This document shows, piece by piece, positions 115 to 13,824 of a stretch of 14,783 nucleotides of DNA. How positions within the stretch are numbered: the first letter of the stretch is position 1; each line of letters begins with the position of its first letter. The notes under the pieces are model-generated. The model did not search any database. It was not told the DNA's origin and saw only the letters and a program-made list of their open reading frames with translations. The stretch is from the IMG/VR virus record IMGVR_UViG_2541047897_000004, one strand, 5' to 3'. The stretch comes from a virus. Taxonomy: Duplodnaviria; Heunggongvirae; Uroviricota; Caudoviricetes. A program made the translations under genes and the position numbers.

Positions 115-190
115 GCCGATATAGCTCAGTTGGTAGAGCAGCGCATTCGTAATGCGAAGGTCGTAGGTTCGACTCCTATTATCGGCACCA
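115..190 (+). tRNA. thrW: tRNA-Thr (anticodon CGU)
   Basis: 76-nt cloverleaf read directly: acceptor stem GCCGATA/TATCGGC, D-loop AGTTGGTA, anticodon loop TTCGTAA with anticodon CGT (reads ACG), T-arm GGTTCGACTCC, encoded 3' CCA. Matches my recollection of enterobacterial thrW, a known integration site. Confidence 0.92.
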
Positions 191-192
191 TT
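172..192. repeat. attL-type direct repeat (3' end of tRNA-Thr, actcctattatcggcaccatt)
   Basis: 21-bp sequence identical to 13313-13333; overlaps the tRNA 3' end, as is typical for tRNA-targeting integrases. Confidence 0.85.
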
Positions 193-794
193 AAGAAAAT
201 CAATAACTTAGCTTAACTTCTCTAAGAAATTGTATCTTCTGTTATCACTTACAAACGCCTATACGTTGTTATGGGCTTTGGTAGTGTAACACGTATGGGC
301 GAGTAGTTCACAGGCTCAACCTCGTAACAAGTTCCTTTGAAGCTGGAAGACGTGCCACCGTCTCTAAACCTTCTACCAAAACTCTTAGCAAGATGTTCCA
401 CACCTGGCGCGGTGTCCAATGATGCTACACGTCGTGAGACGTTGCAGAGGATAAACAGGCTAAATGATGGGAAGAGTTTTAAGTGCATAGTGGATTAAAG
501 CCCACCTCTTCAAAACCTAACTTGATCGGGAAAGAATCAAGCTCTAGCACGGTTTCGTCCACCGGAGTACAACGGGTGCCTGATAAGAGAAGAACTGCTA
601 AGACTTCATAGCTTTTGTGAAAAAGCCCTTTTTAGTGGATACGCCTACGGCGCTTATTTTTTGGTATAACCATCAAAGGCGCTTTATGGCTCCTATTGTC
701 TTGAAAATGTATCTTTACTTGTATTGTGTTTTATGCGTAGCCTTCCTGTGTAGTATGTAACTTGTTAATTTTCATATGAATACAGAGGCACACG

Positions 795-947
795 ATGAAA
801 AACATTGCAGCTATCAAACGTAATAACCGCAAGATTCACGCTCGTAAGTTCCTGTCTACGCCAGAAGGAAAAGCCTGGCTAGAGCGTAAACAGCGAGAGA
901 ACGAAGAAAGAAAACTCCTTAGTGAGTTGAAATGGCTTAAGGATTGA
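795..947 (+). CDS. small basic protein, 50 aa (MKNIAAIKRNNRKIHARKF...), hypothetical
   Basis: ATG at 795 with GAGG 7 nt upstream; ORF below the 60-aa cutoff of the supplied track; lysine/arginine-rich. Function unknown. Confidence 0.35.
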   Translation: MKNIAAIKRNNRKIHARKFLSTPEGKAWLERKQRENEERKLLSELKWLKD

Positions 948-1013
948 ATCACCAGTAGGCGCATAACACATCCAGCGATCAAAGATGTGTTTATGCACCT
1001 GATAGTGAAATTA

Positions 1014-1172
1014 TTAAAGTCGTTTAGTTAACATCGCCATTGCTTGAGCAATAATTGCAACAGCGTCCATCTCTTCACTGGAAGCGATGCAAATGCGGTA
1101 ACTAATAGCCACAACGAATACATCAATAACGAGAAAGTGAATAGTGTGAAGATGTTTTGAAAGTAAATGCAT
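1014..1172 (-). CDS. small hydrophobic peptide, 52 aa (MHLLSKHLHTIHFLVIDVFVVAISYRICIA...), hypothetical
   Basis: ATG preceded by GGAGGA (4-nt spacer) on the minus strand; hydrophobic core consistent with one membrane helix; not in the ORF track because it is under 60 aa. Could be spurious. Confidence 0.25.
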   Translation of the reverse strand: MHLLSKHLHTIHFLVIDVFVVAISYRICIASSEEMDAVAIIAQAMAMLTKRL

Positions 1173-1512
1173 AACTTCCTCCGGTTTTACGATAGGAAGA
1201 TTAGAACATGCATTAAATGATGTTACAAGGGTGGTAATTTACCCTAATAGTCTACTATTCACCTCAATCTACGTCAACCAATATTTGATGTAGATTTAAT
1301 TTTCTTTTAAAAACAATGTGTTGCAATTTGTTGAATTTTGGGGTTAGGTTGTTTTTTGAACGTTTTCATCAAGTGTAAAGATACGTTTAGCCTTCATAGT
1401 GAGTTCAGTTACTGTCTTTTTCTCTGAAATCGGCGCAGACGTGATCAATGTTTAACGCGAAGATCAGCGGCGTCAGGTCCACGCAGCGACAATTCTCAAA
1501 TATCAGGAGGCA

Positions 1513-2064
1513 TTACGCTTCCTGCTCTTTCTTGATACGTTGCACCGTCTGTGTGCTGACACTGAAATCTTTTGCTACGCTCCGAATTGATCCACCATTC
1601 GCGAGAGCGGCAACAATTCCCGCTCGATCAATTGCTTTTCCATTACCACGTTTTGCTATACGTCCAGCGGCCTTAGCTGCGGCGATCCCCTCACGCTGCC
1701 GCTCAAGCATCATTTCACGTTCCATTTGTGCCACTGCTGCAAGCACTGTGAGCATCATATTCCCTGCGGGAGAGTTCTTCCCTGTCTTAAAGTCTTCTTT
1801 ATGGAAATGCACAGACACGCCGCGCTCTGTTAATTGCTCAACCGTTGCCAGTAGGTCGGCTGTATTACGGCAAAGTCGATCAATGCTGTGAACATGCAAA
1901 ACATCACCTTCACGCACATAGTTCATCATTGCCTCAAACTGTGGGCGCTGGGTATTCTTGCCTGACGCTTTATCTTCAAAGACTTTATCAAGAGTTACTC
2001 CAGCTAATTGACGGTCTGTGTTTTGTTGGACAGTCGATACCCTAATGTATCCAATATTAGCCAT
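1513..2064 (-). CDS. serine recombinase (resolvase/DNA-invertase family), 183 aa from the second Met
   Basis: N-terminal IGYIRVSTVQQNTDRQ catalytic-serine motif, DKASG, TVLAAVAQMEREMMLER and a C-terminal HTH (SIRSVAKDFSVSTQTVQRI), all hallmarks of small serine recombinases. AGGA lies 8 nt upstream of the second ATG (2064); the ORF track starts two codons earlier at 2070. Confidence 0.9.
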   Translation of the reverse strand: MANIGYIRVSTVQQNTDRQLAGVTLDKVFEDKASGKNTQRPQFEAMMNYVREGDVLHVHSIDRLCRNTADLLATVEQLTERGVSVHFHKEDFKTGKNSPAGNMMLTVLAAVAQMEREMMLERQREGIAAAKAAGRIAKRGNGKAIDRAGIVAALANGGSIRSVAKDFSVSTQTVQRIKKEQEA

Positions 2065-2593
2065 TTTCATTTTCCTTCTGTGTTGATTTGTGTGTAGTGA
2101 TTATTGATCGTGTTGATTAGGTGTGTAAAGGACTTTTTTCACTACGAAATTCGAAGGTTTTTAGTGTGGTGATTTAGCCTGCTTTATCACTACACGTCTT
2201 GCATGAGAATCATGTAGTTACATTTTGGTAAAATTAGCAAGCTATTAAATAGTGTGTTTATTTTGAAAAAATAATTTTTTGTTGCATTAAAGGAAACTTG
2301 TTCGACAAATAATAGATTGATTTTTAATCAACAATTTCTGATAGTGCTCTGTAAGCCGCATTACACAAGGCTTTGCGAAAGTGATGTAAAAGTGAAGAAA
2401 GTAAGAATTGCACTTTTAAGCTACTTTTCATTGAATTTTTAGTATGGAATTACATAAGGATTAATCATCAATTAATCTTGAATTTAAGCCTGTTTTAGAT
2501 GTTTAATTTTGGTAGCAAGAAACACTTTTAGAAGATCATTGCACAGATGTTATGTGATAAATGGATGTAACGGTAGGTCACTGTGAACTACCC

Positions 2594-2724
2594 CCACAGA
2601 ATTCTGTTATCCTTAACTTTTAAAGAAATATGCACCCTAACAGAAAACTGTTACCCCAACCCTAACAGAATTATGTTATACACCCCCACAGAAAACTGTT
2701 AGCCACCCCTACAGAATTTTGTTA
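2594..2724. promoter_or_regulatory. array of five 16-bp palindromic sites, consensus yAACAG-N4-CTGTTA (iteron/operator-like)
   Basis: Sites at 2594-2609, 2638-2653, 2663-2678, 2686-2701 and 2709-2724, each preceded by a C-tract (cacccc); centre-to-centre spacing 44, 25, 23, 23 bp; site 2 is a perfect palindrome TAACAGAAAACTGTTA. Confidence 0.6.
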
Positions 2725-2841
2725 CCTATTAGATCAACTATCAAACTACAATTAAATTATCTTTTATAAATTCTTTTATCTTTAAAGAATAATTATAGGG
2801 ATACCCGTTAGGGGAGTCCTTGACTATCCCTTAATCTATTG

Positions 2842-3215
2842 GCATTCGCCAGAACCTTGCACAAGTTAGAGTGTTAGTCGTTAGACTGCTTGTCATAACA
2901 CATAGTTTTTGTTTGTTGATGTTAGTTAGTAGATCTATGTTCGCTAATGCCGCTCACAACGAATATGTAATCTACTATGTGCAAATAGCCTACGGCTTGC
3001 GTAAGGCTAAATAGTCTTGCGCTGTGCGCAGAACGATAATTAACTAACTACCATCTAACGATTGAAATTTACTTGTGCAATAACCTGAGCGTAAGCGAAT
3101 GGTTGTTAGTGTCTATGCGCTGTGCGCTTCAATAGTTCCATTGATGAGGCTTACGCCAATCTAACGATCATCAATCATCTAAAATAAATTTCTTGTGCAA
3201 TGTTCTGGCGAATGC
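2842..3215. repeat. 24-bp inverted repeat pair (GCATTCGCCAGAACcTTGCACAAG at 2842-2865; CTTGTGCAAtGTTCTGGCGAATGC at 3192-3215) flanking a 326-bp segment
   Basis: The reverse complement of the left copy matches the right copy at 23 of 24 positions; the intervening segment holds a degenerate ~100-120-bp tandem duplication (gcgctgtgcgc, atctaacgat and cttgtgcaat each occur twice). Confidence 0.6.
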
Positions 3216-3695
3216 AATTAGAGTAGCGTTACCCCTTTGGGGATGCTAACGCATAACTATAGATCAACCATCAAACAGACAAAAAAGAAAAATATGGTTT
3301 AAAGATGTTAGGTAGTAGATGAGATTCTACCGCTTAAATCAAGCCGTAGGCGAGCTAAACGTATATAAGGCAGGGAAACACTTAGCGGTAATAGATTATC
3401 TCGTTATAGAGCTTCTGAGGAGCTTTACAGGTATTTTATAAGGTGTCTGAAATTAGAGTTAATCTATCATCTCCTTTTCATATACCTAACAAATACAAAA
3501 TAAGCCCCTTAAATAAGCCTCTGGCGAGCTAAACAGCCTCTACATAAGGGAATGTATTGTATTTATCAAAACCTCGTCAGAGGGCGTTTTAGAGCGTTTT
3601 AGAGAATAAGGAAGAATAGGAGTACTCGTAAGAGCACGAATTGCTAAGAAAAATTATAACACACTGAAAATGATCAATATTTTTATGGCTAGGGG

Positions 3696-3724
3696 TTGAC
3701 AAAAGCTTTTAGTCGTGGTAAAGT
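3696..3724 (+). promoter_or_regulatory. sigma70-like promoter candidate (TTGACA-17 bp-TAAAGT) for the small-protein operon
   Basis: Perfect -35 hexamer at 3696-3701, 17-bp spacer, -10-like TAAAGT at 3719-3724; about 120 bp upstream of the first ORF at 3848. Confidence 0.4.
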
Positions 3725-3847
3725 AATATTAGGGACAGAAAACATTCTTATCCTCTAAGTAATTAAACCAATGCACCGCACTTTGAAGCCCAACAAGGCT
3801 TGCAAGGTGTTTTTTCTTTTAACCAAATAGAATAAGGAGGCTAATTA

Positions 3848-4024
3848 ATGAAATATTTTACTCCACAGGATGTAGTTGAAGCCTGGAAACGTGGTGAGAT
3901 TAATCGTTTTAAAGTAAGGATGAACAGGAACACAGCGCGACGCTGTGGTTATCCAGAGCGTGAAAAATGCTTTGACGATGCACTAAAAATTATTGATGAA
4001 CTGCGTAAGGCAGAGAAAGAATAA
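3848..4024 (+). CDS. small protein, 58 aa (MKYFTPQDVVEAWKRGEINRFKVRMNRNTARRCGYPEREKC...), hypothetical
   Basis: ATG preceded by a consensus AAGGAGG 7 nt upstream; absent from the ORF track only because it is under 60 aa. Confidence 0.6.
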   Translation: MKYFTPQDVVEAWKRGEINRFKVRMNRNTARRCGYPEREKCFDDALKIIDELRKAEKE

Positions 4025-4045
4025 TAACAGGAGAAGGAGAAAACT

Positions 4046-4216
4046 ATGAGCGAAACTACAGAAAAGAAAAGACAACCACGCACTTGCTTTCATATTCCTG
4101 ATGAAGTATTTCAGGTGTTGTTTAAAGAAGCCAGAAGTAAACGTATCACTGTTACAGATTACATTCTTGATATGTTGAAAAGAGAGGCTGAAACACTCTC
4201 AAACAAAAGCAAGTGA
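4046..4216 (+). CDS. ribbon-helix-helix (CopG/Arc-like) DNA-binding protein, 56 aa
   Basis: GGAGAAGGAG upstream of the ATG; sequence RTCFHIPDEVFQVLFKEARSKRITVTDYILDMLKRE fits the beta-strand/helix/helix pattern of RHH regulators and antitoxins; under 60 aa so not in the track. Confidence 0.6.
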   Translation: MSETTEKKRQPRTCFHIPDEVFQVLFKEARSKRITVTDYILDMLKREAETLSNKSK

Positions 4217-4269
4217 TTTTTATCACCATAGTAGCGCCGTAGAGCGTGATTACATCAAGGAGATTTTTA

Positions 4270-4839
4270 ATGATTAATGAAGAACAATTTGTAAAAGTTC
4301 CTATGTGGATTCTAAAAATAAGCCAAGTAAACGGGCATAAATTTACAGATAGTGCTAAAAACCTTTACTGCTATTTGAGAGGGTTTGATCGTGCATTTCC
4401 CTCTTACGCTAAGATAGGCGATGTTTTTGGCATAACACCAAGAGCAGCAGAAGAAAGGGTTAAGAAATTGCTCGAAATGGGATTAATTATAAAAGATGCA
4501 CGACCAGGAAGCTCTAACCTTTATCGAGTGCTTGATATTCCAAAAGGAGAATCATCACTACCTGATCCTTCTGAGAAAGAAGACGAATCTAATGGAATAT
4601 TGAATGTTTCCGAAATCATCATTGAAGAAGAAACACAGGAATCAGAGTTCCCTGAGCGGCCCGAAATTTTTACTTGGCTTCTTTCCCTTGATAAGAAGAA
4701 ACCACCACACGAAGAAACAGAAGATTTTGTAAAACGAGCATTAGATTCAAAGAATATCTATCTTTGTGAAAATGATTTTGACTCTTTGATAATTGATCTC
4801 AAAAGTGAGAGCACAATATATGATTCACTACCCTTCTAA
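4270..4839 (+). CDS. winged-helix/HTH DNA-binding protein with acidic C-terminal tail (possible replication initiator or regulator), 189 aa from the ATG
   Basis: AAGGAG 6 nt upstream of the ATG at 4270 (the track's 4246 start is a GTG); N-terminal ...LYCYLRGFDRAFPSYAKIGDVFGITPRAAEERVKKLLEMGLI resembles wHTH domains of plasmid/phage replication-organiser proteins; C-terminus is rich in Asp/Glu. Family assignment is by eye only. Confidence 0.75.
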   Translation: MINEEQFVKVPMWILKISQVNGHKFTDSAKNLYCYLRGFDRAFPSYAKIGDVFGITPRAAEERVKKLLEMGLIIKDARPGSSNLYRVLDIPKGESSLPDPSEKEDESNGILNVSEIIIEEETQESEFPERPEIFTWLLSLDKKKPPHEETEDFVKRALDSKNIYLCENDFDSLIIDLKSESTIYDSLPF

Positions 4840-4848
4840 GGAGAATAA

Positions 4849-5118
4849 ATGACTTATAACATCACTATAGGAAACAAAACTATTGAAATAACTGAAAGCG
4901 GATACAACATTTTAAAATCTATTTTGGACATAGAGTTCTCACCCCCGACAGTGGTTAGCTTTTGTAGTTTAGGCGGCTACAGCGCACAACACGTGAATCA
5001 TTGGTTAAACCATTTTACATCGTTCGGTGTGCTGGATTATGAAGGGATTAACAGCACTACATTTCGTCTTTTGAAATTAAACAAAGATTTTGAATTGTTT
5101 ATCACAAACAATCAATAA
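4849..5118 (+). CDS. hypothetical protein, 89 aa
   Basis: AAGGAG 5 nt upstream of the ATG; co-directional and tightly packed with neighbours; no recognisable motif. Confidence 0.7.
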   Translation: MTYNITIGNKTIEITESGYNILKSILDIEFSPPTVVSFCSLGGYSAQHVNHWLNHFTSFGVLDYEGINSTTFRLLKLNKDFELFITNNQ

Positions 5119-5214
5119 CAACAGATCGGGCAATACATATGGCAAATGCATTTATGGCGATATTCATCGTAACTATGGCATTCAGTTTTTATAATCCACA
5201 TAAAAAGAGGGAAA

Positions 5215-5598
5215 ATGGGAAGAAAGAAAAAGAACAACTTAAAACGTATTGAAAAAAACAGTAATTTCAATTCAACAAGACAACGTCCACCGACACATAC
5301 CAATAACGAAATTCCAGGGGAAGAGATAATCTTTATTCTTGAAACAGAATCCCCTGAATTAAGTGATGAAGAATTAGAAATAATCCAATCAATGCCAGGC
5401 GTTTACTTTCGCCCAAGAACAAGAAAACAAACTATCATTTCTGATGGCACTCTGAAACGTTGGCAGCTTTTAGGGTTTAGCTCCTATCATCATTTTTTGG
5501 GATTTAACGCTTTCAATAATTGTGTAGGTGGTGCATCGGAAGTCGATCTGATGGCTCATTTAGAAGATACATTAGCTTCTAACAAACGTTCTAACTAA
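5215..5598 (+). CDS. hypothetical protein with basic N-terminus, 127 aa
   Basis: AGAGGG Shine-Dalgarno upstream of the ATG; N-terminal MGRKKKNNLKRIEK; no recognisable catalytic motif. Confidence 0.65.
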   Translation: MGRKKKNNLKRIEKNSNFNSTRQRPPTHTNNEIPGEEIIFILETESPELSDEELEIIQSMPGVYFRPRTRKQTIISDGTLKRWQLLGFSSYHHFLGFNAFNNCVGGASEVDLMAHLEDTLASNKRSN

Positions 5599-5655
5599 TA
5601 AAATGATGGGTGTATGTATAAGCGCCCAATGAAAATATTCGAAAAAGGAAAAATA

Positions 5656-5859
5656 ATGATTGGCTATATTCAAGAAACACAATTATTTCAGATGATCCTG
5701 TCTGATGCAAAAAACTATGCTGAGTTAATTCGGCTGGCAAAAGAAACAGAAGACTACGAAGCATTAGAGCGTTACCGTGATGAAGTGCTGACGCTCAAGA
5801 CACCTTTTAACATCGTATTGAATATGATTAATGATGCATTACAAGGAGAAGACGCATAA
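5656..5859 (+). CDS. small acidic protein, 67 aa (ORF extends to 5614 for 81 aa)
   Basis: AAGGAAA 5 nt upstream of the internal ATG at 5656; stop overlaps the next start (TAATG at 5857-5861), implying translational coupling; net negative charge. Confidence 0.6.
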   Translation: MIGYIQETQLFQMILSDAKNYAELIRLAKETEDYEALERYRDEVLTLKTPFNIVLNMINDALQGEDA

Positions 5860-6167
5860 TGGAAGAAGATATTAGCAATGCAATGGAACAACTTTTAGAT
5901 CTGACTATCTCACTACAAACAAGAATAAATCAAGCCTATTCAGATTTATGCGATTACACGCTCTCACAATGCGTTATTAGCTTAATGAAGGTGAATGTAA
6001 GCCTTGACGATTTTATCTCTCTGGTGAGCGATTTAGAGCTATCAGAGGACGATGCAAAACAGTGTAATCAAATCATCACAGACATCGCCACCACGTTAAA
6101 GGTTGCAAGTGAAGAGATTCAGCAATTAGTAGATGATTTAGCAAAAAGTGCTATTTTCTCTAAATGA
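5859..6167 (+). CDS. strongly acidic small protein, 102 aa (about 19 Asp/Glu versus 6 Lys/Arg)
   Basis: ATG overlaps the upstream stop; AGGAGA upstream; composition counted directly from the translation. Confidence 0.7.
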   Translation: MEEDISNAMEQLLDLTISLQTRINQAYSDLCDYTLSQCVISLMKVNVSLDDFISLVSDLELSEDDAKQCNQIITDIATTLKVASEEIQQLVDDLAKSAIFSK

Positions 6168-6443
6168 TAATGAAAATTATTTGCATTTATAATGATTTTG
6201 TTATATAATAATTTTAGGGGTAGATAAAAAGATTTTAGTTGGTGTTAATCCTTCTACTGTCATAAATCCCTGCATATGGAAGGTGATAGCCTCAAAGGTT
6301 GAGTGGCATTAACCTCTAACAAATATTACCTTCCATCTCTCAAGAAGTTTTAGAATAATCATAACTCCCTCTTTGATTGTTGATTGTTGATTGTTTCTAC
6401 GTTGTGTTGATGAATGTTGTTAGGCATTGTGCTTAATTTTGAT

Positions 6444-6490
6444 AAAAGCGGGTAGGTGTTATCTCCTTGCCCTTCCCGCTTTTATTTTTC
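6444..6490 (+). terminator. rho-independent terminator candidate downstream of the small-protein operon
   Basis: AAAAGCGGG (6444-6452) pairs with CCCGCTTTT (6475-6483), followed by ATTTTTC. Confidence 0.55.
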
Positions 6491-7028
6491 ATCTATGCTT
6501 ATCCTAAAGCTCCTTATTTTGTCCGAAAACATTAAAGAGCCTTACACTGATAGTTATATTTTATAACTATTTACTAACATCATTAAACTCTTATTTAATG
6601 ACGGAAGTTAGTAACAGAATAATCTATTAAGTTGTTGTCAAAAACAATCATCTGCATAGCGTTAGCCGCAAGCAGAGAGAGTTTAGCTAAGAATTGTGCA
6701 ATAACCTTTGGAAATATTGATAGCAAAACGGGTTTTATAGACTGCAAATCTATAATCTTTGGTTGTAAAAACGCTTTTTCTGAAACGGTAGATTATTGTT
6801 GGTGTAGTTAATTCTATTAAAATTTGATCTGTGAGTAGATGAGAATTGGAATAGTGATTCCTTAAAGCCTTACTTTGTTGCATCCACAGCAAAAACAGGC
6901 AGCGGTTAGCCACCGCACCCAGAATATCAGATCTTAGTGATTCCAGTGGCAAACTCCTAAGAGCCTTCCTTTCTAAGGTCTGATATTCACTCTTTAAGCA
7001 TATCATCAAGTATATTTAAAAAGTGTAT

Positions 7029-7056
7029 TTGCTGATATGTTTAATCCTCTTATAGT
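7029..7056 (+). promoter_or_regulatory. sigma70-like promoter candidate (TTGCTG-16 bp-TATAGT) upstream of the cargo block
   Basis: Hexamers read directly at 7029-7034 and 7051-7056; followed by a terminator-like hairpin (AAGCCCC 7091-7097 / GGGGCTT 7130-7136 plus T-run) in the leader. Confidence 0.3.
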
Positions 7057-7169
7057 TTAACTTATCAATTATGTAATTGCCCGCACGTTAAAGCCCCTTT
7101 GCTGGTCAGAATTAACCTCTTACGGCATTGGGGCTTTTTATTTGTCTGGCACTAACAGGAACGTTATTT

Positions 7170-7367
7170 ATGAAACAAGAAATGATTATCAGCAAAGACG
7201 GGGAAACGATGATTGTTAGTGATGAAAACCTCATTAAGGTTGCCGCACTGTTGGGAGTTACTCCCGAAAGTCTTCGTTCTACCACTGCTCAATTATTTAA
7301 ATCGGCTGATGCGGTTAGTCTTGCTGATGCCCTTAAATCTAAAATTAAACAACTGAAAGGAAAATAA
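7170..7367 (+). CDS. small protein, 65 aa, possible HTH (…LIKVAALLGVTPESLRS…)
   Basis: ATG at 7170 with AGGA 9 nt upstream; the track's longer form starts at a TTG (7128) that overlaps the leader hairpin. Confidence 0.55.
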   Translation: MKQEMIISKDGETMIVSDENLIKVAALLGVTPESLRSTTAQLFKSADAVSLADALKSKIKQLKGK

Positions 7368-7371
7368 TCTT

Positions 7372-7755
7372 ATGGCTAACCCATATGGAAAATTAAAAGC
7401 AGTGAATGCGGATAATTCCCGTTCACGCTGTAAGGTAGTAGCTTACGCTGCTGATCCAGTGCTGCAAGATCGCCTCGTCAAACTGGCTTCACCTCTCACT
7501 GACGATCTTATTGTCGGGGCTTTGCTGAAAGCCGATGGCACCAAAGCAACAACCGCATCTGATATTGCTCACGTAGTAGTTGAACCGGCTTATGAAGGAC
7601 AGGAAAGCGTAGTGGTTGCACATCCTACTTTCGTTATTCTGGCTGAAGATGGGATTGAATTTAACAGCATGGAAAAGGCAAGTGTTATTGCAAAACTGCA
7701 ATCTCTCGGCTTTGTAATTGCTGGTTATGAAGAACTTGCGATCCCTACGACTTAA
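7372..7755 (+). CDS. hypothetical protein, 127 aa
   Basis: AAGGAAAA upstream; 4-bp gap after the preceding gene. I compared it to lambda D and U type small virion proteins and could not confirm either. Confidence 0.8.
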   Translation: MANPYGKLKAVNADNSRSRCKVVAYAADPVLQDRLVKLASPLTDDLIVGALLKADGTKATTASDIAHVVVEPAYEGQESVVVAHPTFVILAEDGIEFNSMEKASVIAKLQSLGFVIAGYEELAIPTT

Positions 7756-7769
7756 CAAGGAAAATAATA

Positions 7770-8801
7770 ATGAATGATTTATCAACATATTTTGGCGTTA
7801 ATACTGCGGTAGTAACTCCATTTGCTTATGAGAATGCACTTAATACCCTGATTACTAATCTCGATCTGTTCGATGTGCAATATCATACAGAAAACAGCAT
7901 TCTTCTTACCGACCTGATTGATCAGTTTGTGCAGGTAGCTGGGGAAACCTCGCCTTACGCTCAAAGCGACTGGAACGCCTCTAAACGTCAGGAATGGTCA
8001 AACAAACTTTTCCAGATGAAACACGTCGGCAGTATTAACGCTGTTACTTCTCGTGACCTGGAACAATACAGCCGCCAATATCCAAACCGTTCTGATGCTA
8101 TGCTGGTAGCGGTTAATGATTTCTCTGAGGCTCATTACCGTTCACACGCAAACCGTGTTGAAGTGGATCTGATTACCGCGCTGCTGGGACTGAAAGTTGA
8201 ATCTGAATATGCCGGACAAGGTGATCTCGACTTCCTCGACGGTCAGGCTAAAACCACGGTACCCGCTATCGACTTTGCATCGACTACTGTTAACCCGTTC
8301 CTTGCTATTCGTAAAGCGGTGCGCTTACAGAGTGAAAAGCTGGGGTCTGGTCTTGCTGCAAAGCGAACTGGTGTAATTATCTTTGCTGCTGGCGCTGCTG
8401 CTGATGGTTTGTCATCTAACCCGCTGATCAGTGACATGGTGAAATATGCAGGTGATGCGAGTGCTACGGCCCTGTTTACCCGTATGGTTGATTCTAACCC
8501 AGCCTATGACTCTTTCCAGATTGGTGGGATCACTGTTATTGATGTGTCAATGTTTCCTGAGATTGTTGCTCACATCGGAGAGAACGGTTTCGCAATTGTC
8601 CCGGTAATGGATAAATCGGTACAGTGTTACCAGCTTCACACAGGCGTTGGTGTGCGTCATGCTGAGTTAGGTCAAGATGCCGTGTTGCATCACCAATATC
8701 TAATCAAGGATGAATTCCAATTCCCATCTGTGGTTACTGAGACATCTTATCTGCCAGTAAACAACATTCCGCAAGCTATCATCTTCGGATCTGCTGCGTA
8801 A
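7770..8801 (+). CDS. hypothetical protein, 343 aa (possibly virion-structural-like; unverified)
   Basis: AAGGAAAA upstream; long clean ORF with higher GC than the left half of the element (by eye); Gly/Ala-rich segment GVIIFAAGAAADG; no Walker A, HxH or other catalytic motif seen. Size and position are compatible with a capsid or major tail subunit, but I see no diagnostic motif. Confidence 0.8.
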   Translation: MNDLSTYFGVNTAVVTPFAYENALNTLITNLDLFDVQYHTENSILLTDLIDQFVQVAGETSPYAQSDWNASKRQEWSNKLFQMKHVGSINAVTSRDLEQYSRQYPNRSDAMLVAVNDFSEAHYRSHANRVEVDLITALLGLKVESEYAGQGDLDFLDGQAKTTVPAIDFASTTVNPFLAIRKAVRLQSEKLGSGLAAKRTGVIIFAAGAAADGLSSNPLISDMVKYAGDASATALFTRMVDSNPAYDSFQIGGITVIDVSMFPEIVAHIGENGFAIVPVMDKSVQCYQLHTGVGVRHAELGQDAVLHHQYLIKDEFQFPSVVTETSYLPVNNIPQAIIFGSAA

Positions 8802-8954
8802 TAAAGCATTAATAGACGATTCCCATCGTCTGGAAAATAAGGGTAAAGGGATTACCTAACCTGTAGGCGCAAATACAGTAACGAATCTCTTTGCCTTTTT
8901 TGTTTTTCTACTGTCTACAAACCCAAATAAAAATATATATGTGAGAGAAAACCA

Positions 8955-9152
8955 ATGAACACAGAAAATTCACAGGCATTAATTCTTAAGTCTGTAAAAG
9001 AACTGGCAGCTATTAGCGATGACTCAATAATCAATGTCAGTGCCTTATGCAGAATGCTTTCAATTGATGCAAATAATGTGCGGCAGCGTGTGTTTCAGAC
9101 TGGGTGCAGCACTTTTGAAGCAATTACATACTACTGTTCTAAAAAACAATAA
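8955..9152 (+). CDS. small protein, 65 aa, HTH-like (…INVSALCRMLSIDANNVRQRV…)
   Basis: ATG with GAGAGA upstream; helix-turn-helix-like segment; sits between the 343-aa and 633-aa genes. Confidence 0.55.
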   Translation: MNTENSQALILKSVKELAAISDDSIINVSALCRMLSIDANNVRQRVFQTGCSTFEAITYYCSKKQ

Positions 9153-9186
9153 CAAACAACAATCATAATACAGGGAAACAATTAGC

Positions 9187-11088
9187 ATGTTAGAAATTAG
9201 CGCCTCACGAATTAGTAATGTTGTGACATTTACCACTGATTTCAAGAGCTTACAGAAAGCTAAGAATGAAGTGGATAAGCTACAAAAGAAGATGCAGGGG
9301 ATCAAACCTGTGCAAGTGGCGGCAGCACGTCAGAAAGATTTACAGAGGCTGGGAAAAGAGATTCAGCGCCAGCATGATCAGCATGTTAAGCAGGCTGTTA
9401 AATCTGAGACACAGGCATCTAAAGCCAGCACTAAACAGAAGCTACAGGAAGCTAAAAACCTCGCTAAAGCACAGGCTAAACGAGCCTCAATTGCTGAAAA
9501 GGCAGAGATCAAGCGCCTTGCATCATATCGCCAGTTACAAGGCATCAAGAACAATTCCCGCTATGGCGAAGGGATGGATATTAAGAAATATCACGATGCT
9601 CTACGTTACATTAAGGAACAAACCCGCCTCTATGAATCCGGCGCTATATCGCAAGCGAAGATGAATGCCCTGATCCGTGACCGCATCACATTAGAAAGAC
9701 GAGCCGCAGCCGCTGCTACGCGTCGTAATGCTGCCGCTGGGGGGGTATATCCAGTTACTTCTAAGAAGCTCCACAAAGAAGGTGTTAGCGGCGGTGGCGC
9801 GTTAATGATGGGCGGTGTTGGTGGCATTATCGGCGGCGCTGCCGTTGGCTTAGGAAGTATGGCTGTATCCGCTGGAATGGAAAAAGCCCGTGAACGTATG
9901 GAATTGCAGAAGATGAGCGATCTGGTAGGTGCCGATAGCAATCAGGTGGCTGCAATGGTTAATTGGGGGAGGGCAAACGGTGTATCAAGTGCAAGCGCGG
10001 ACAAGACCACTGATAATATCAAAGACTTAAACGAACGCATTGGTCATCAAAGCCGAACTGCTGAATGGGATAGTAAGAAAAAAGAGTGGCGAGGCGGGGA
10101 AGGATCATTAAATGATATTCAGAATGCCTTTGCATGGAACAAAGATAAGATAGCTTCCTACCAGGGGCGACCGCTGCAACTCTTGCAAGACGTGGTGAGA
10201 GAAGGTGAACGCCGAGGAATGACTAAAGAAGCCATCATATCCCTGATCGAACCATTAGCAGACGATGCCAGCCATTATCTCAAGATGTTTTCCCGTGATG
10301 GGGAAGAGTTCCGTAAAACGATGGTTGATATGGAAAACAACGGGCAGCTACTGACAGAAGCACAGAAAGAGCAATATCGCGCAGCTAACAAGACAGCTAC
10401 AGCCTTTGACCGTCTGACAGATGGACTATCGAATCAGGCTATTTTGGGCTTCTTTGATGGCATAGCCAACATGCCAGCACTCAAACCGGAAGAAAGCAAA
10501 GCCTTACAGAATGCAGCTTATGGTGTTGGTGCATCGTTCGGGGATTTGGCTAAACAAGGCGCTGTATTACTGACCTCTATGACTTCTTACGGGAATCAAA
10601 TCACAAGCTGGATTAATAAACATCTTAGCCGTGGTGAGAATGATAACCGACCTGAGACACAAAAGGTTATGGACGCTGTTACAGATGGGGAATGGTCGCC
10701 ATCAACGATTATCAATGAAGGTATTCGTTATGCAACTGGACTCGATACGAAAGATGTAGGGCGTATTGTGCGCGGTGAGGAAACACAGTCCGGCGTTCCA
10801 GGGTGGTGGACTGATTTAATTAATGGCAATGCTAACAGCTACGGATCAACCCTTGTTGCACGTAAAGCAGAAGCCTATCAGCCGACTGTAAGCCTACAAC
10901 GTCAATACGCAACCCCTGTTAACGTGAATGCACAGGTTACGGTGCCGAGTGATATGATCTCTGTTAACGTCATCCCTAACGGTCCCGGCTTTCAGGATTT
11001 AATCCGCACTGAGATCAGAGCGAACAACAATCAGTTTAGTTCGAATCTGATTCTTAGCACGTTGTCAGGACAGAGTAGCGTTAACTAA
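9187..11088 (+). CDS. large coiled-coil protein with Gly-rich hydrophobic segment, 633 aa (tape-measure-like; unverified)
   Basis: N-terminal ~180 aa is K/Q/A/E-rich with heptad-like character; GGGALMMGGVGGIIGGAAVGLGSMAVSAGM hydrophobic glycine-zipper segment; no nuclease or ATPase motif. This architecture is common in phage tail tape-measure proteins, but I cannot confirm homology. Confidence 0.8.
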   Translation: MLEISASRISNVVTFTTDFKSLQKAKNEVDKLQKKMQGIKPVQVAAARQKDLQRLGKEIQRQHDQHVKQAVKSETQASKASTKQKLQEAKNLAKAQAKRASIAEKAEIKRLASYRQLQGIKNNSRYGEGMDIKKYHDALRYIKEQTRLYESGAISQAKMNALIRDRITLERRAAAAATRRNAAAGGVYPVTSKKLHKEGVSGGGALMMGGVGGIIGGAAVGLGSMAVSAGMEKARERMELQKMSDLVGADSNQVAAMVNWGRANGVSSASADKTTDNIKDLNERIGHQSRTAEWDSKKKEWRGGEGSLNDIQNAFAWNKDKIASYQGRPLQLLQDVVREGERRGMTKEAIISLIEPLADDASHYLKMFSRDGEEFRKTMVDMENNGQLLTEAQKEQYRAANKTATAFDRLTDGLSNQAILGFFDGIANMPALKPEESKALQNAAYGVGASFGDLAKQGAVLLTSMTSYGNQITSWINKHLSRGENDNRPETQKVMDAVTDGEWSPSTIINEGIRYATGLDTKDVGRIVRGEETQSGVPGWWTDLINGNANSYGSTLVARKAEAYQPTVSLQRQYATPVNVNAQVTVPSDMISVNVIPNGPGFQDLIRTEIRANNNQFSSNLILSTLSGQSSVN

Positions 11089-11161
11089 GTTTAACGATAA
11101 CTAATAATAAAGCGGGGGCAATATTTATTGCTTTCCGCTCATTACACAAGGATTAATATAA

Positions 11162-11818
11162 ATGGCTATCAAAGAAAGTCAGATCAACAGCACATCTAAC
11201 ATTAATACATCTAACAGCAAGGTTAAATCTGATAACGGATTTGCCATTATATGTAGCAACCTGAATAACGAGAATGCATCAACGATAGCCAGTTATAAAG
11301 CTATTACTTTTGACGCTGTTCCGGCAACTAAGGTTTCACGTTCTGCCGATGTTACATCGTATCCTGTGCAGGATGGTAATGATGTATCTGATAATGTCAG
11401 GATCAAGAATAATAAACTTATGCTTTCAGGCATTATTACAGAAACACCATTAGCATTACGTGGTGATATGCTATCAAGTGCAGGGGTGAACGGTAACAGG
11501 TGTTCACAGGCTATTGCTTATCTTGATGAAATAATGAATGCCAGACAGCCTATTATTGTAAGCACAGAGCATAAGACGTTTGATAATATGATTCTGACAG
11601 GCATTGACTACGAATATAAAACAGAATCAGCTTTACAGTTTGATTTGCAGTTCGAACAGATAAGATTAGTGAGTTATGCAACTACTAACGCTATTGCTGT
11701 AAAGACCGCATCACCTAAGAGCACAGGCGGACAGGTAAAAAGCCAAGTGCCAACCAATGCAGGAACAGCCAGCACCACTAAAGACACCCTTCCGACGTAT
11801 GACGGAGAAGTGAAATAA
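11162..11818 (+). CDS. hypothetical protein, 218 aa (possibly tail-associated; unverified)
   Basis: AAGGA upstream; Ser/Thr/Asn-rich termini; follows the 633-aa gene in the position a distal-tail protein would occupy if that gene is a tape measure. Confidence 0.75.
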   Translation: MAIKESQINSTSNINTSNSKVKSDNGFAIICSNLNNENASTIASYKAITFDAVPATKVSRSADVTSYPVQDGNDVSDNVRIKNNKLMLSGIITETPLALRGDMLSSAGVNGNRCSQAIAYLDEIMNARQPIIVSTEHKTFDNMILTGIDYEYKTESALQFDLQFEQIRLVSYATTNAIAVKTASPKSTGGQVKSQVPTNAGTASTTKDTLPTYDGEVK

Positions 11819-11852
11819 TCCCTATAAAGAACGATGTAGCGAGATAATCATA

Positions 11853-11888
11853 AAAGAGGCTACCAATCTATATTGAAGCCTCTTTATT
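11853..11888. terminator. bidirectional hairpin terminator between convergent genes
   Basis: AAAGAGGCT (11853-11861) pairs with AGCCTCTTT (11877-11885), 15-nt loop, T-run after; lies between the stop of the 218-aa gene (plus) and the stop of the integrase (minus). Confidence 0.55.
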
Positions 11889-11892
11889 ACGT

Positions 11893-13170
11893 CTATAGCG
11901 TTGTTTTACGCCTTAAATTTGATTTTTTATTGATTGATAAGCCTTTCTCTATTTCAGGGTAGCGTAAAAGCTCAATATATTTTTTAAGCTCTATTGGAGA
12001 AGCTGCATTTTTGCTATATGTGCGGAATGTTTCTGTATTGCCGCGTGTATGGCCCAGGAGAAGGGCGATCCTGTCTTCTGGAATTTGATTTCGATCAAGA
12101 AGCTGTGCTACTCCGTGTCTCAGAGAATGAAACACCTTCCTTTCTGTTCCCTTTTCCCCTAAAGCCTTTCGTTTAGCTCTTGTAAATCTCTGCGTATGCC
12201 ACGTGGAACGTTTACCATCAGCACGCTCTGTAATGCTGGCGTGATAGAACAAAAAGCCATTGTGAGGCTTTTCACGCAGCGACAACACCAACGGAGTGAT
12301 AAGGCTATGCACAGGCACAAGACGTGCCGCAGCTTTCGTTTTTCCCTGTGTGATTTCAAAACACAGCACACCTTCGATCTCTTTCACATCGTCTATTGTG
12401 AGACTTGCTATCTCATTGATCCGCATACCTGTATATAAACCGATAAGACACAAAGCCATCATTTCTTTGTTTTCTGCTGAATTACCGGAAAATACTTGCA
12501 ACACCTGCAATAGCTCTTTGTTAGAAAATGCCTCGTAGCTCTCTCTACTTTGTGCCACATCAAGCCTATGCCCTCGCCAGGGGGAGAGCGCCCTTTCTGG
12601 CGCATCGTGGTAACGTGATGAAGCTAATTCCCATAGCTGGGCCATTGGGCTGATATAATTTGCAATTGATTGTTGTGAAAGAGTTTTTTGCATGTGTTCA
12701 ATCCAGCCTGTAACAGTGGTGCGGCTTACATCTTGCAATGCAATATCAGGCTTTTTACGGTAGGAGAGAAACATCTCTACCGCTTTTCTTGCCTTAGCTA
12801 AAGTGGCTGGCTTCTTCTTCGTGCTGTTAATTGTCAGGTAGATTTCAAGAATTTTAAGCAATGACGGACACGAAGACGCTGTATCTTGCATTCTGGTAGC
12901 TGTTTTGGCGTATTTAGCCTTACTGCGTAACAGTTCCAGCGTGTTTTCTATTGTGCTGTTTACAGGGGCAACACTCTCCCGTAAGCAATGGTATTCATCT
13001 GCAATCTGATCACGCTTTCTACGTGCAACACGAAGATTACTTGTGTGCAGACTTCTGACAAACGTCCTTTTTCCTTCAAAAAAGGGCTGCATATACACAG
13101 GCAGCGTGATCCTTAAATAGTAGTTACCGTAAGAATCACAGATTAAGTATTGGTTAGGCTTGTATCTCAT
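11893..13170 (-). CDS. tyrosine recombinase / phage-type integrase, 425 aa from the RBS-supported ATG
   Basis: C-terminal catalytic region with HSLRHGVAQ and LLGHTRGNTETFRTYSK (R/H/R/Y tetrad pattern); adjacent to the right att repeat. GGAG lies 5 nt upstream of the ATG at 13170; the track's longer ORF starts at a TTG (13257) with no Shine-Dalgarno. Confidence 0.9.
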   Translation of the reverse strand: MRYKPNQYLICDSYGNYYLRITLPVYMQPFFEGKRTFVRSLHTSNLRVARRKRDQIADEYHCLRESVAPVNSTIENTLELLRSKAKYAKTATRMQDTASSCPSLLKILEIYLTINSTKKKPATLAKARKAVEMFLSYRKKPDIALQDVSRTTVTGWIEHMQKTLSQQSIANYISPMAQLWELASSRYHDAPERALSPWRGHRLDVAQSRESYEAFSNKELLQVLQVFSGNSAENKEMMALCLIGLYTGMRINEIASLTIDDVKEIEGVLCFEITQGKTKAAARLVPVHSLITPLVLSLREKPHNGFLFYHASITERADGKRSTWHTQRFTRAKRKALGEKGTERKVFHSLRHGVAQLLDRNQIPEDRIALLLGHTRGNTETFRTYSKNAASPIELKKYIELLRYPEIEKGLSINKKSNLRRKTTL

Positions 13171-13312
13171 AAAATCTCCGGCTAAAGTGTCGGAGCGTTT
13201 GTAATGTGAAAATTGATTGTGACGCATAGAAAATGATGATTTTTCTATAAGATTCAATCAATTAGTAATGGTCGTAGGTGATGGCATTAACACGAGATTA
13301 ATCGAGTGTTTT

Positions 13313-13333
13313 ACTCCTATTATCGGCACCATT
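13313..13333. repeat. attR-type direct repeat (partial tRNA-Thr 3' end)
   Basis: Exact 21-bp copy of 172-192; a further 10-bp tRNA match (ggtcgtaggt, 13270-13279 versus 159-168) lies upstream, separated by a 33-bp insertion. Confidence 0.85.
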
Positions 13334-13485: not shown

Positions 13486-13824
13486 GTGAAACTCAATGCC
13501 CGTCAAATAGACACTGCCAAGCCAAAAGAGAAGGCTTACAAGTTGGCTGATGGTGGTGGTCTGTACCTCCTGGTAAAACCTGGTGGAGGAGAATATTGGC
13601 GTCTCAAGTATCGTGTAGCTGGTAAAGAGAAGCTGTTAGCACTAGGTGTGTATCCTGAGGTCACCTTAGCTGATGCTCCTGCAAAACTTGAAGAAGCTAA
13701 AAGAGGTATCTCTGGGGGAATCGATCTGATGGAAGTGAAGCGAGAGGAAAAGATTGCCCGGGAAACGCAGTTAAACAACACCTTCAAAGATATTGCCCTT
13801 GAGTGGCACAGTAACAAATTATAA
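13486..13824 (+). pseudogene. truncated N-terminal fragment of a P4-type (tRNA-associated) integrase, 112 codons
   Basis: Translation …ARQIDTAKPKEKAYKLADGGGLYLLVKPGGGEYWRLKYRVAGKEKLLALGVYPEVTLADA… matches the conserved arm-binding N-terminus of P4-family integrases as I recall them; the ORF stops after 112 codons with no catalytic domain and AT-rich non-coding DNA follows. Confidence 0.7.

Follow-up and report, generated by a model that had tools for sequence, protein, structure and literature searches.

A putative iteron array in a probable Escherichia coli phage satellite and its covariation with the winged-helix domain of the predicted initiator

Background

The closest described counterpart of the locus treated here is the replication module of PLE, a satellite that replicates during helper-phage infection only (PMC7145576). 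The N-terminal domain of its initiator RepA is available as 4RO3, and RepA_N iterons take the form of direct repeats that are semi-palindromic, with inverted sub-repeats converging toward an A-tract (PMC7145576). The phage ICP1 encodes Odn, a mimic of PLE RepA that binds the iterons of PLE and cleaves its origin (PMC8263062). For E. coli, Barth, Dunham and Seed (2023) predicted a satellite family computationally, with a modular RepA_N-like initiator, and noted that these satellites lack a primase-helicase Rep of the kind found in PICIs (PMC10448857). No origin was located in the E. coli satellites in that work; the term "iteron" is not used there, and "origin of replication" appears twice, both times for PLE (PMC10448857).

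We analyzed a stretch of DNA of 14,783 nucleotides (the window) that contains an integrated satellite-like element of 13.1 kb, with five copies of a dyad-symmetric repeat in its non-coding region. With a probability that we put at about 0.78, this array is the iteron set at the replication origin of the satellite. The function proposed for the array and for the protein domain paired with it rests on family resemblance, anatomy and analogy with PLE.

The integrated element and its gene content

A 21-bp direct repeat, ACTCCTATTATCGGCACCATT, occurs on the plus strand at 172-192 (attL), at the 3' end of a tRNA-Thr gene (115-190), and again at 13313-13333 (attR), so the element spans approximately 172-13333. 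In an Rfam search at gathering thresholds, the tRNA was the only RNA found. The tyrosine integrase of the element is encoded on the minus strand at 11893-13257. The chromosome of E. coli strain CE0021a includes a segment with 100% identity to the region 2070-4900 (2,831 bp), for which matches exist in 747 of 5,426 complete E. coli genomes. Just past attR, an ORF at 13486-13824 encodes the arm-DNA-binding N-terminus alone of a P4-type integrase (Pfam Arm-DNA-bind_3, 9e-24) and resembles what would be left of a second island inserted at this tRNA; strain CE0021a has a full-length integrase gene at the corresponding position.

From left to right, the element has a serine recombinase gene, a gene-free region of 1.8 kb that includes the array, and a rightward operon of small proteins, followed by genes for a relative of major head proteins, a tape measure, a Dit-like baseplate protein and the tyrosine integrase. 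The serine recombinase (185 aa; 1513-2070, minus strand) matches Pfam Resolvase (1e-38) and a PHROG "DNA invertase" family (2e-62). Its gene is missing from three related loci (L005, L014 and L015), and an IS3 element takes its place in a fourth (L006). The first gene of the operon (3848-4024, plus strand) encodes a conserved protein of 58 aa. It is followed by the gene for a 56-aa protein (4046-4216, plus strand), described earlier as RHH, for which we found no family match, and by that for the predicted initiator, a RepA_N/DnaD-NTD-like protein of 189 aa (4270-4839, plus strand).

The 343-aa head-protein relative is a distant one, and the 633-aa tape measure has 32-34% identity to those of phAPEC8-like phages (~150 kb). 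The element is a member of the family of Barth et al., with which it shares a decoration protein, major capsid, tape measure, baseplate, tRNA-adjacent tyrosine integrase and RepA_N-like initiator. Its gene set lacks terminase, portal, helicase, primase and polymerase, as well as a partition NTPase (ParA/TubZ), a protease and Pri-Rep. Given that helicase, primase and polymerase are absent, the replication machinery probably comes from a Stephanstirmvirinae helper (phAPEC8-like, about 150 kb). Autonomous replication after excision, raised in the preliminary description, is doubtful on the same grounds, and the analogue PLE also needs its helper.

The gene-free region has several further features. 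A nested inverted repeat occupies 2832-3225; each of its outer arms (2832-2865 and 3192-3225) measures 34 nt, with 88% complementarity between the two, it has inner arms too, and as RNA it folds far better than shuffled sequences on both strands (z -6.1 and -7.9). We considered it as an invertible switch for the serine recombinase, but a query with the segment in inverted arrangement found it in 0 of 352 genomes, so it is not an active switch for this invertase-like enzyme. The inverted repeat is missing from the other backbone lineage of the family. A near-palindrome, CTTGnnCAA(G), occurs at 2856, 3072 and 3192, two of these copies lying within the inverted-repeat arms, and may be the binding site of one of the small proteins. 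In a conserved gene-free stretch upstream of the operon promoter, AAGCCnnnGGCGAGCTAAAC is found twice (3341-3360 and 3515-3534), and GCGTTTTAGA is present in tandem at 3584-3604.

The repeat array and its surroundings

The segment 2590-2724 holds five direct units of about 23 bp, each consisting of a C-tract and then a dyad core, ACAG-N4-nTGTTA. All five putative iterons read on the plus strand. Copy 1 (2590-2609, ACCCCCACAGAATTCTGTTA) is made up of ACCCCC and ACAGAATTCTGTTA, and its core is a perfect 12-bp palindrome, ACAGAATTCTGT. Copy 2 (2634-2653, ACCCTAACAGAAAACTGTTA) joins ACCCTA to ACAGAAAACTGTTA and has perfect 6-bp inverted arms, TAACAG/CTGTTA. Copy 3 (2659-2678, ACCCTAACAGAATTATGTTA) is ACCCTA plus ACAGAATTATGTTA, copy 4 (2682-2701, ACCCCCACAGAAAACTGTTA) is ACCCCC plus ACAGAAAACTGTTA, and copy 5 (2705-2724, ACCCCTACAGAATTTTGTTA) is ACCCCT plus ACAGAATTTTGTTA. 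The cores start at 2596, 2640, 2665, 2688 and 2711, which gives spacings of 44, 25, 23 and 23 bp, and their variants across the units can be written ACAG-(AAAA/AATT/AATTT)-CTGT.

A search of both strands of the whole window with the pattern ACAGAANNCTGTTA, allowing up to two mismatches, gave eight matches, which are the five sites with three of them read on both strands. All lie inside 2594-2724, so that no cognate site was found outside the array at this stringency. Shuffled sequences gave a mean of 1.79 matches, and none of 200 shuffles reached eight. No ORF of at least 40 aa overlaps the array. The preliminary description had reported five spaced dyads with C-tracts, and its coordinates, spacing and symmetry all agree with the sequence and the pattern search. 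It had overlooked a single repeat of another family (type E, defined below), TAGGTCACTGTGAACTA, at 2574-2590 on the plus strand, which abuts copy 1 and is non-cognate for the initiator of this element. This site is itself preceded by a half type-C site, GTAACG, at 2566-2571 on the plus strand. In most relatives, too, the arrays are bordered on their left by such a leader of single non-cognate sites (2563-2590 in the window), and the type-E site recurs in this position in nearly all related arrays.

Directly 3' of the last iteron lies an A+T-rich stretch (2725-2800), a candidate DNA-unwinding element. It is 85-88% A+T in 40-nt windows, the highest value within 2300-3300, and in related elements it remains beside the array. 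Between 2000 and 3900 there was no DnaA box with at most one mismatch, and Rfam in E-value mode gave a single match, at chance level. One IHF-consensus match is located at 2310, about 280 bp from the array.

Since the initiators of some relatives are annotated as "LexA family", we also considered the array as a set of LexA/SOS boxes. The SOS-box consensus is CTGT-N8-ACAG. The array instead has ACAG-N4-CTGT and is thus no SOS box.

The predicted initiator

The initiator has three parts: a winged-helix N-domain (aa ~1-92, type A), an acidic linker (aa ~93-127) and a C-domain (aa ~130-180). In the AlphaFold model, which has a mean pLDDT of 67.5 and is thus of moderate confidence, the winged helix covers residues 12-87 with pLDDT of about 80, the linker is disordered, and the C-domain has three helices. 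The modeled N-domain resembles the DnaD N-terminal domain, the N-terminal domain of PLE RepA and RepA of pSK41, with a small lead over ordinary winged-helix regulators.

At the family level, the N-domain and its relatives from Klebsiella, Citrobacter, Serratia and Enterobacter match PHROG replication-initiation or O-like families (phrog_270 at 1e-8, and phrogs 428, 678, 391 and 8540) and no PHROG regulator family. The only Pfam match was the generic HTH_36, for which the window protein scored 19.9 bits, under the 25-bit cut-off, and the initiator did not match RepA_N (PF06970) in hmmscan. The fold evidence is supportive, not decisive.

We propose that initiator dimers would bind each semi-palindromic 23-bp unit through the N-terminal winged helix, that the loaded array would destabilize the adjoining A+T-rich stretch, and that the separate C-terminal domain would recruit the replication machinery.

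The preliminary description had left the choice between iterons and an operator array undecided. As a transcriptional operator or enhancer, the array would be the place where the winged-helix regulator acts cooperatively on the divergent recombinase gene or on the rightward operon, and we consider this unlikely. In NCBI sources the protein is named "transcriptional regulator" or "helix-turn-helix domain-containing", LexA, MarR and ArsR-type regulators are among its close structural matches, and PDB sequence searches returned generic winged-helix regulators only. The array also sits in intergenic space between divergent gene sets. Against this reading, no promoter-like site overlaps the array in a consensus scan, which weak promoters may escape, and the closest ones lie at 2129-2100 on the minus strand, at a distance of about 470 bp, and at 3696-3724 on the plus strand, at about 970 bp. 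The latter is the best sigma-70-like match, TTGACA-17-TAAAGT with TG, and belongs to the rightward operon. Cognate sites are absent near both promoters, as they are elsewhere in the window, and the family-level matches of the protein are all to replication initiators. The kinship of the N-domain, the A+T-rich stretch next to the array and the distance to promoters therefore point to replication initiation over transcription control. Iteron-replicon initiators often autoregulate as well, and a dual role is conceivable.

Array exchange and covariation with the initiator N-domain

With the conserved 58-aa gene as an anchor, we gathered 85 related loci from complete genomes and metagenomes. A scan of genome contigs yielded five loci only, so the family is essentially confined to Escherichia. 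In relatives with flanks 95-97% identical, the segment 2595-2739 has been cleanly exchanged for another repeat array. Among the 85 loci, the N-domain of the initiator occurs in just five types, which are 20-30% identical to each other, and each is paired with its own repeat family at the array position: cccnACAGAAnnCTGTTA for type A, AGGAAATGAnTTCC for type B, GTAACGAnnnGTTAC for type C, TATCAAnnnTGATAcccc for type D and TAGGTCACTGTGAGCTAggggg for type E.

We counted covariation in the 67 loci whose upstream sequence extends over 2 kb or more. In 57 of them the cognate repeat family was strictly the commonest; with shuffled labels the mean was 14.1 and the maximum 27 (0 of 10,000 shuffles reached 57). 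The exceptions include six loci with three degenerate type-B sites, two with reduced or variant type-E arrays, and one, L036, that is rearranged; L030 and L076 are genuine mismatches. Overall, the cognate array is kept in approximately 65 of the 67 loci. The count overstates the number of independent events, given that the 67 loci are mutually related and many of the metagenome loci are close kin. The clean swaps, together with the ten domain combinations described below, are a stronger argument than the locus count. On sequence grounds, the covariation proves a functional or physical linkage of array and N-domain, not the activity of the complex.

Of the two mismatched loci, L030 combines a type-E protein with a type-D array and a single E site (2105-2260), and L076 has a type-A protein with two type-E sites only (2221-2265). 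Both are from metagenomes and could be defective, recently recombined or wrongly assembled.

The other components of the locus do not follow the array. The array type is tracked neither by the C-terminal domain of the initiator, which occurs in three types and ten N x C combinations, nor by the 58-aa protein. The 56-aa protein has three variants, of which two are common to array types A, C, D and E, and it is identical in one type-A and one type-D element. The third variant, MNINFDSATYNA..., accompanies type-B initiators only (23 of 23 loci), a restriction that is explained equally well by physical linkage to the N-domain. RefSeq leaves this variant unannotated in L003, L010, L012 and L013. 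We therefore rejected the 56-aa RHH-like protein as the specificity determinant, and the winged-helix N-domain is the only component that tracks all five types. Of the two candidate binders suggested earlier, the RHH and the winged-helix protein, the evidence thus favors the latter.

The type-A arrays also vary among themselves. Across 13 distinct arrays on two diverged backbones, the cores are near-invariant and the outer flanks differ, and copy number varies, L082 having six units.

Some loci have stacked arrays of three to five repeat families, located in a longer non-coding region. These are L005 (3069-3471), L014 (3379-3809), L015 (3409-3804), L063 and L064.

It is very improbable that the arrays are mainly decoys or relics, that is, remnants of cassette exchange or sponges for anti-satellite nucleases with no role in replication. 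Non-cognate single sites and whole arrays do occur in many elements, as in the type-E site abutting copy 1; L005, L014, L015 and L064 carry three to five extra repeat families; and two loci have an initiator and no cognate array. Against these stand the retention of the cognate array in nearly all loci, with near-invariant cores on diverged backbones, and the joint exchange of array and N-domain, which this explanation leaves unaccounted for.

Phage nuclease fusions

The Stephanstirmvirinae phages Mt1B1_P17, BI-EHEC, inny and muut encode satellite-type N-domains fused to a MUG113/T5orf172 nuclease domain. Each fusion has two such domains: A and B in Mt1B1_P17 (QNJ49226.1; L008, 4042-5028) and in BI-EHEC (L018, 1141-2130, unannotated in the record), C and B in inny_184 (L016, 1522-2625), and D and B in muut_154 (L017, 1501-2499). 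The first domain (A, C or D) has 92-100% protein identity to the corresponding satellite type. At the DNA level, identity to the window is 99% for the A segment of Mt1B1_P17, and the longer segments in inny (C) and muut (D) match satellites at about 95% identity. The type-B core common to all four fusions has 86-93% protein identity to type-B satellite domains and, over 261 bp, 96-97% DNA identity to a type-B satellite gene. The C-terminus of the fusions scored 22.6 bits against Pfam MUG113 (cut-off 22.3), and its homologues match MUG113, T5orf172 and CapR. A protein word-index search with the phage nuclease domain alone gave no matches. Other Stephanstirmvirinae, such as phAPEC8 and nieznany, lack the fusion.

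A copy of the satellite 56-aa gene lies directly upstream of the fusion in inny (inny_185; L016, 1302-1484) and in muut (muut_153; L017, 1282-1449), the muut protein being identical to the variant in L005 and L006. These phages have apparently captured satellite DNA as one contiguous piece.

Barth et al. already proposed the coliphage fusion proteins as analogues of Odn, and a figure legend in that work states that the second RepA_N domain of the phages has no detectable homology to the cognate satellite repA (PMC10448857). In our comparison, by contrast, the second domain is the one with 96-97% DNA identity to the repA of type-B satellites. The architecture of the fusions, a satellite-type binding domain plus a nuclease, is like that of ICP1 Odn. 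The arrays are obvious candidates for the DNA targets of the phage nucleases, which would cleave there as Odn does in PLE. That the arrays are kept despite these nucleases argues that they are essential in cis, and the existence of phage nucleases with these domains suits a target that is essential in cis, for example an origin, better than an operator.

It is likewise very improbable that the array is a centromere-like or packaging (pac-like) site, comparable to TubR/tubC or to terminase small-subunit sites: a profile of the five N-domains does weakly match TubR, a centromere-binding winged-helix protein (E 0.0047), and satellites must have a packaging signal, none being identified in this terminase-free element, but it encodes neither a ParA/TubZ partition NTPase nor a terminase subunit to act on such a site, a site read by the helper should resemble helper sequence and the five arrays occur in 0 of 50,697 phage records at blastn sensitivity, and five interchangeable specificities matched to a satellite protein would be unexpected for a site of the helper terminase.

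Comparison with known replication origins

The likenesses to PLE RepA and its origin, known here from sequence alone, are numerous. In both systems a long stretch of non-coding DNA holds the origin, or putative origin, which is built of direct repeats, semi-palindromic in form, with an A/T center; the array shares the shape of RepA_N iterons in the form ACAG-AAAA/AATT-CTGT. In both, the initiator combines an N-domain, here one with a predicted resemblance to DnaD-NTD/RepA_N, with a separate C-terminal domain, and the N-domain and origin are exchanged jointly and the C-terminus is not. Neither satellite has a helicase or primase of its own, and each faces a lytic helper or, here, presumed helper lineage in which a satellite DNA-binding domain is fused to a T5orf172 nuclease. 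The differences are also clear. PLE RepA has no detectable sequence similarity to the initiator of this satellite, and PLE has three units of about 30 bp, whereas the array has five of 23 bp. Two specificity types are found in PLE and at least five here. The host and helper family differ, being E. coli and Stephanstirmvirinae in the present case; PLE has a large serine integrase instead of a tyrosine integrase; and, unlike in ICP1, the phage nucleases bear two satellite-type binding domains. By analogy, we infer that the array and initiator may work like the RepA/ori module of PLE.

Other well-described origins resemble the locus in part. The lambdoid origin is recognized by the O protein and has four dyad-symmetric iterons with an adjoining AT-rich region; the N-domain of lambda O sets iteron specificity and its C-domain contacts the replisome loader. 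The array is similar in having dyad iterons (five, against four) at roughly two-turn spacing, followed by an AT-rich tract, the division of roles proposed for the N- and C-domains of the initiator is alike, and the PHROG families matching the N-domain include "replication initiation O-like" ones. In lambda, however, the iterons are inside the O gene, whereas here they are non-coding and about 1.5 kb upstream of the initiator gene, and no counterpart of the P-like helicase loader of lambda was found in the element. Pfam Phage_rep_O gave no match above threshold, the best being that of a phage fusion protein (E 0.014).

Iteron plasmids (Rep_3 / RepA-pi-TrfA) and SaPI/PICI Pri-Rep origins have direct initiator sites of ~20-23 bp by an AT-rich region. 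The array is like them in its repeat length and setting and in the match of specificity between Rep and origin. It differs from the Rep_3 plasmids in that the element has no Rep_3 match, no Rep with two winged helices and no DnaA box, and from the PICIs in that it has no primase-helicase Rep. We therefore assign the locus to none of these classes, neither as a lambda-type, Rep_3 plasmid or PICI Pri-Rep origin nor as an operator overlapping a promoter.

Implications

In relation to the literature, what is new at the sequence level is the location and sequence of the predicted origin, the five specificity classes with their covariation with the initiator, and the match of the second binding domain of the phage nucleases to type-B satellites. 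These will be of use to the few groups working on conflict between satellites and phages, to whom they will be no surprise. The arrays provide a simple sequence marker with which to type these satellites.

The putative origin supplies the missing half of the replicon, the DNA that both the initiator and the origin-directed nucleases must recognize. With it, direct tests of the proposed arms race can be made in E. coli, which is much easier to work with than Vibrio and ICP1. As a tentative extension, which we regard as possible and not as probable, the arrays and N-domains would make up an allelic system with five or more members (A-E), whose diversity is maintained by an arms race against bispecific nucleases of the phages. 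Given that each nuclease has two satellite-derived domains, always B plus A, C or D, it could disable two replicon types. If this is true, satellites would escape by swapping origin and N-domain jointly, and the stacked arrays of L005, L014, L015, L063 and L064 would be either nuclease decoys or "universal" origins that can be fired by the initiators of co-resident satellites.
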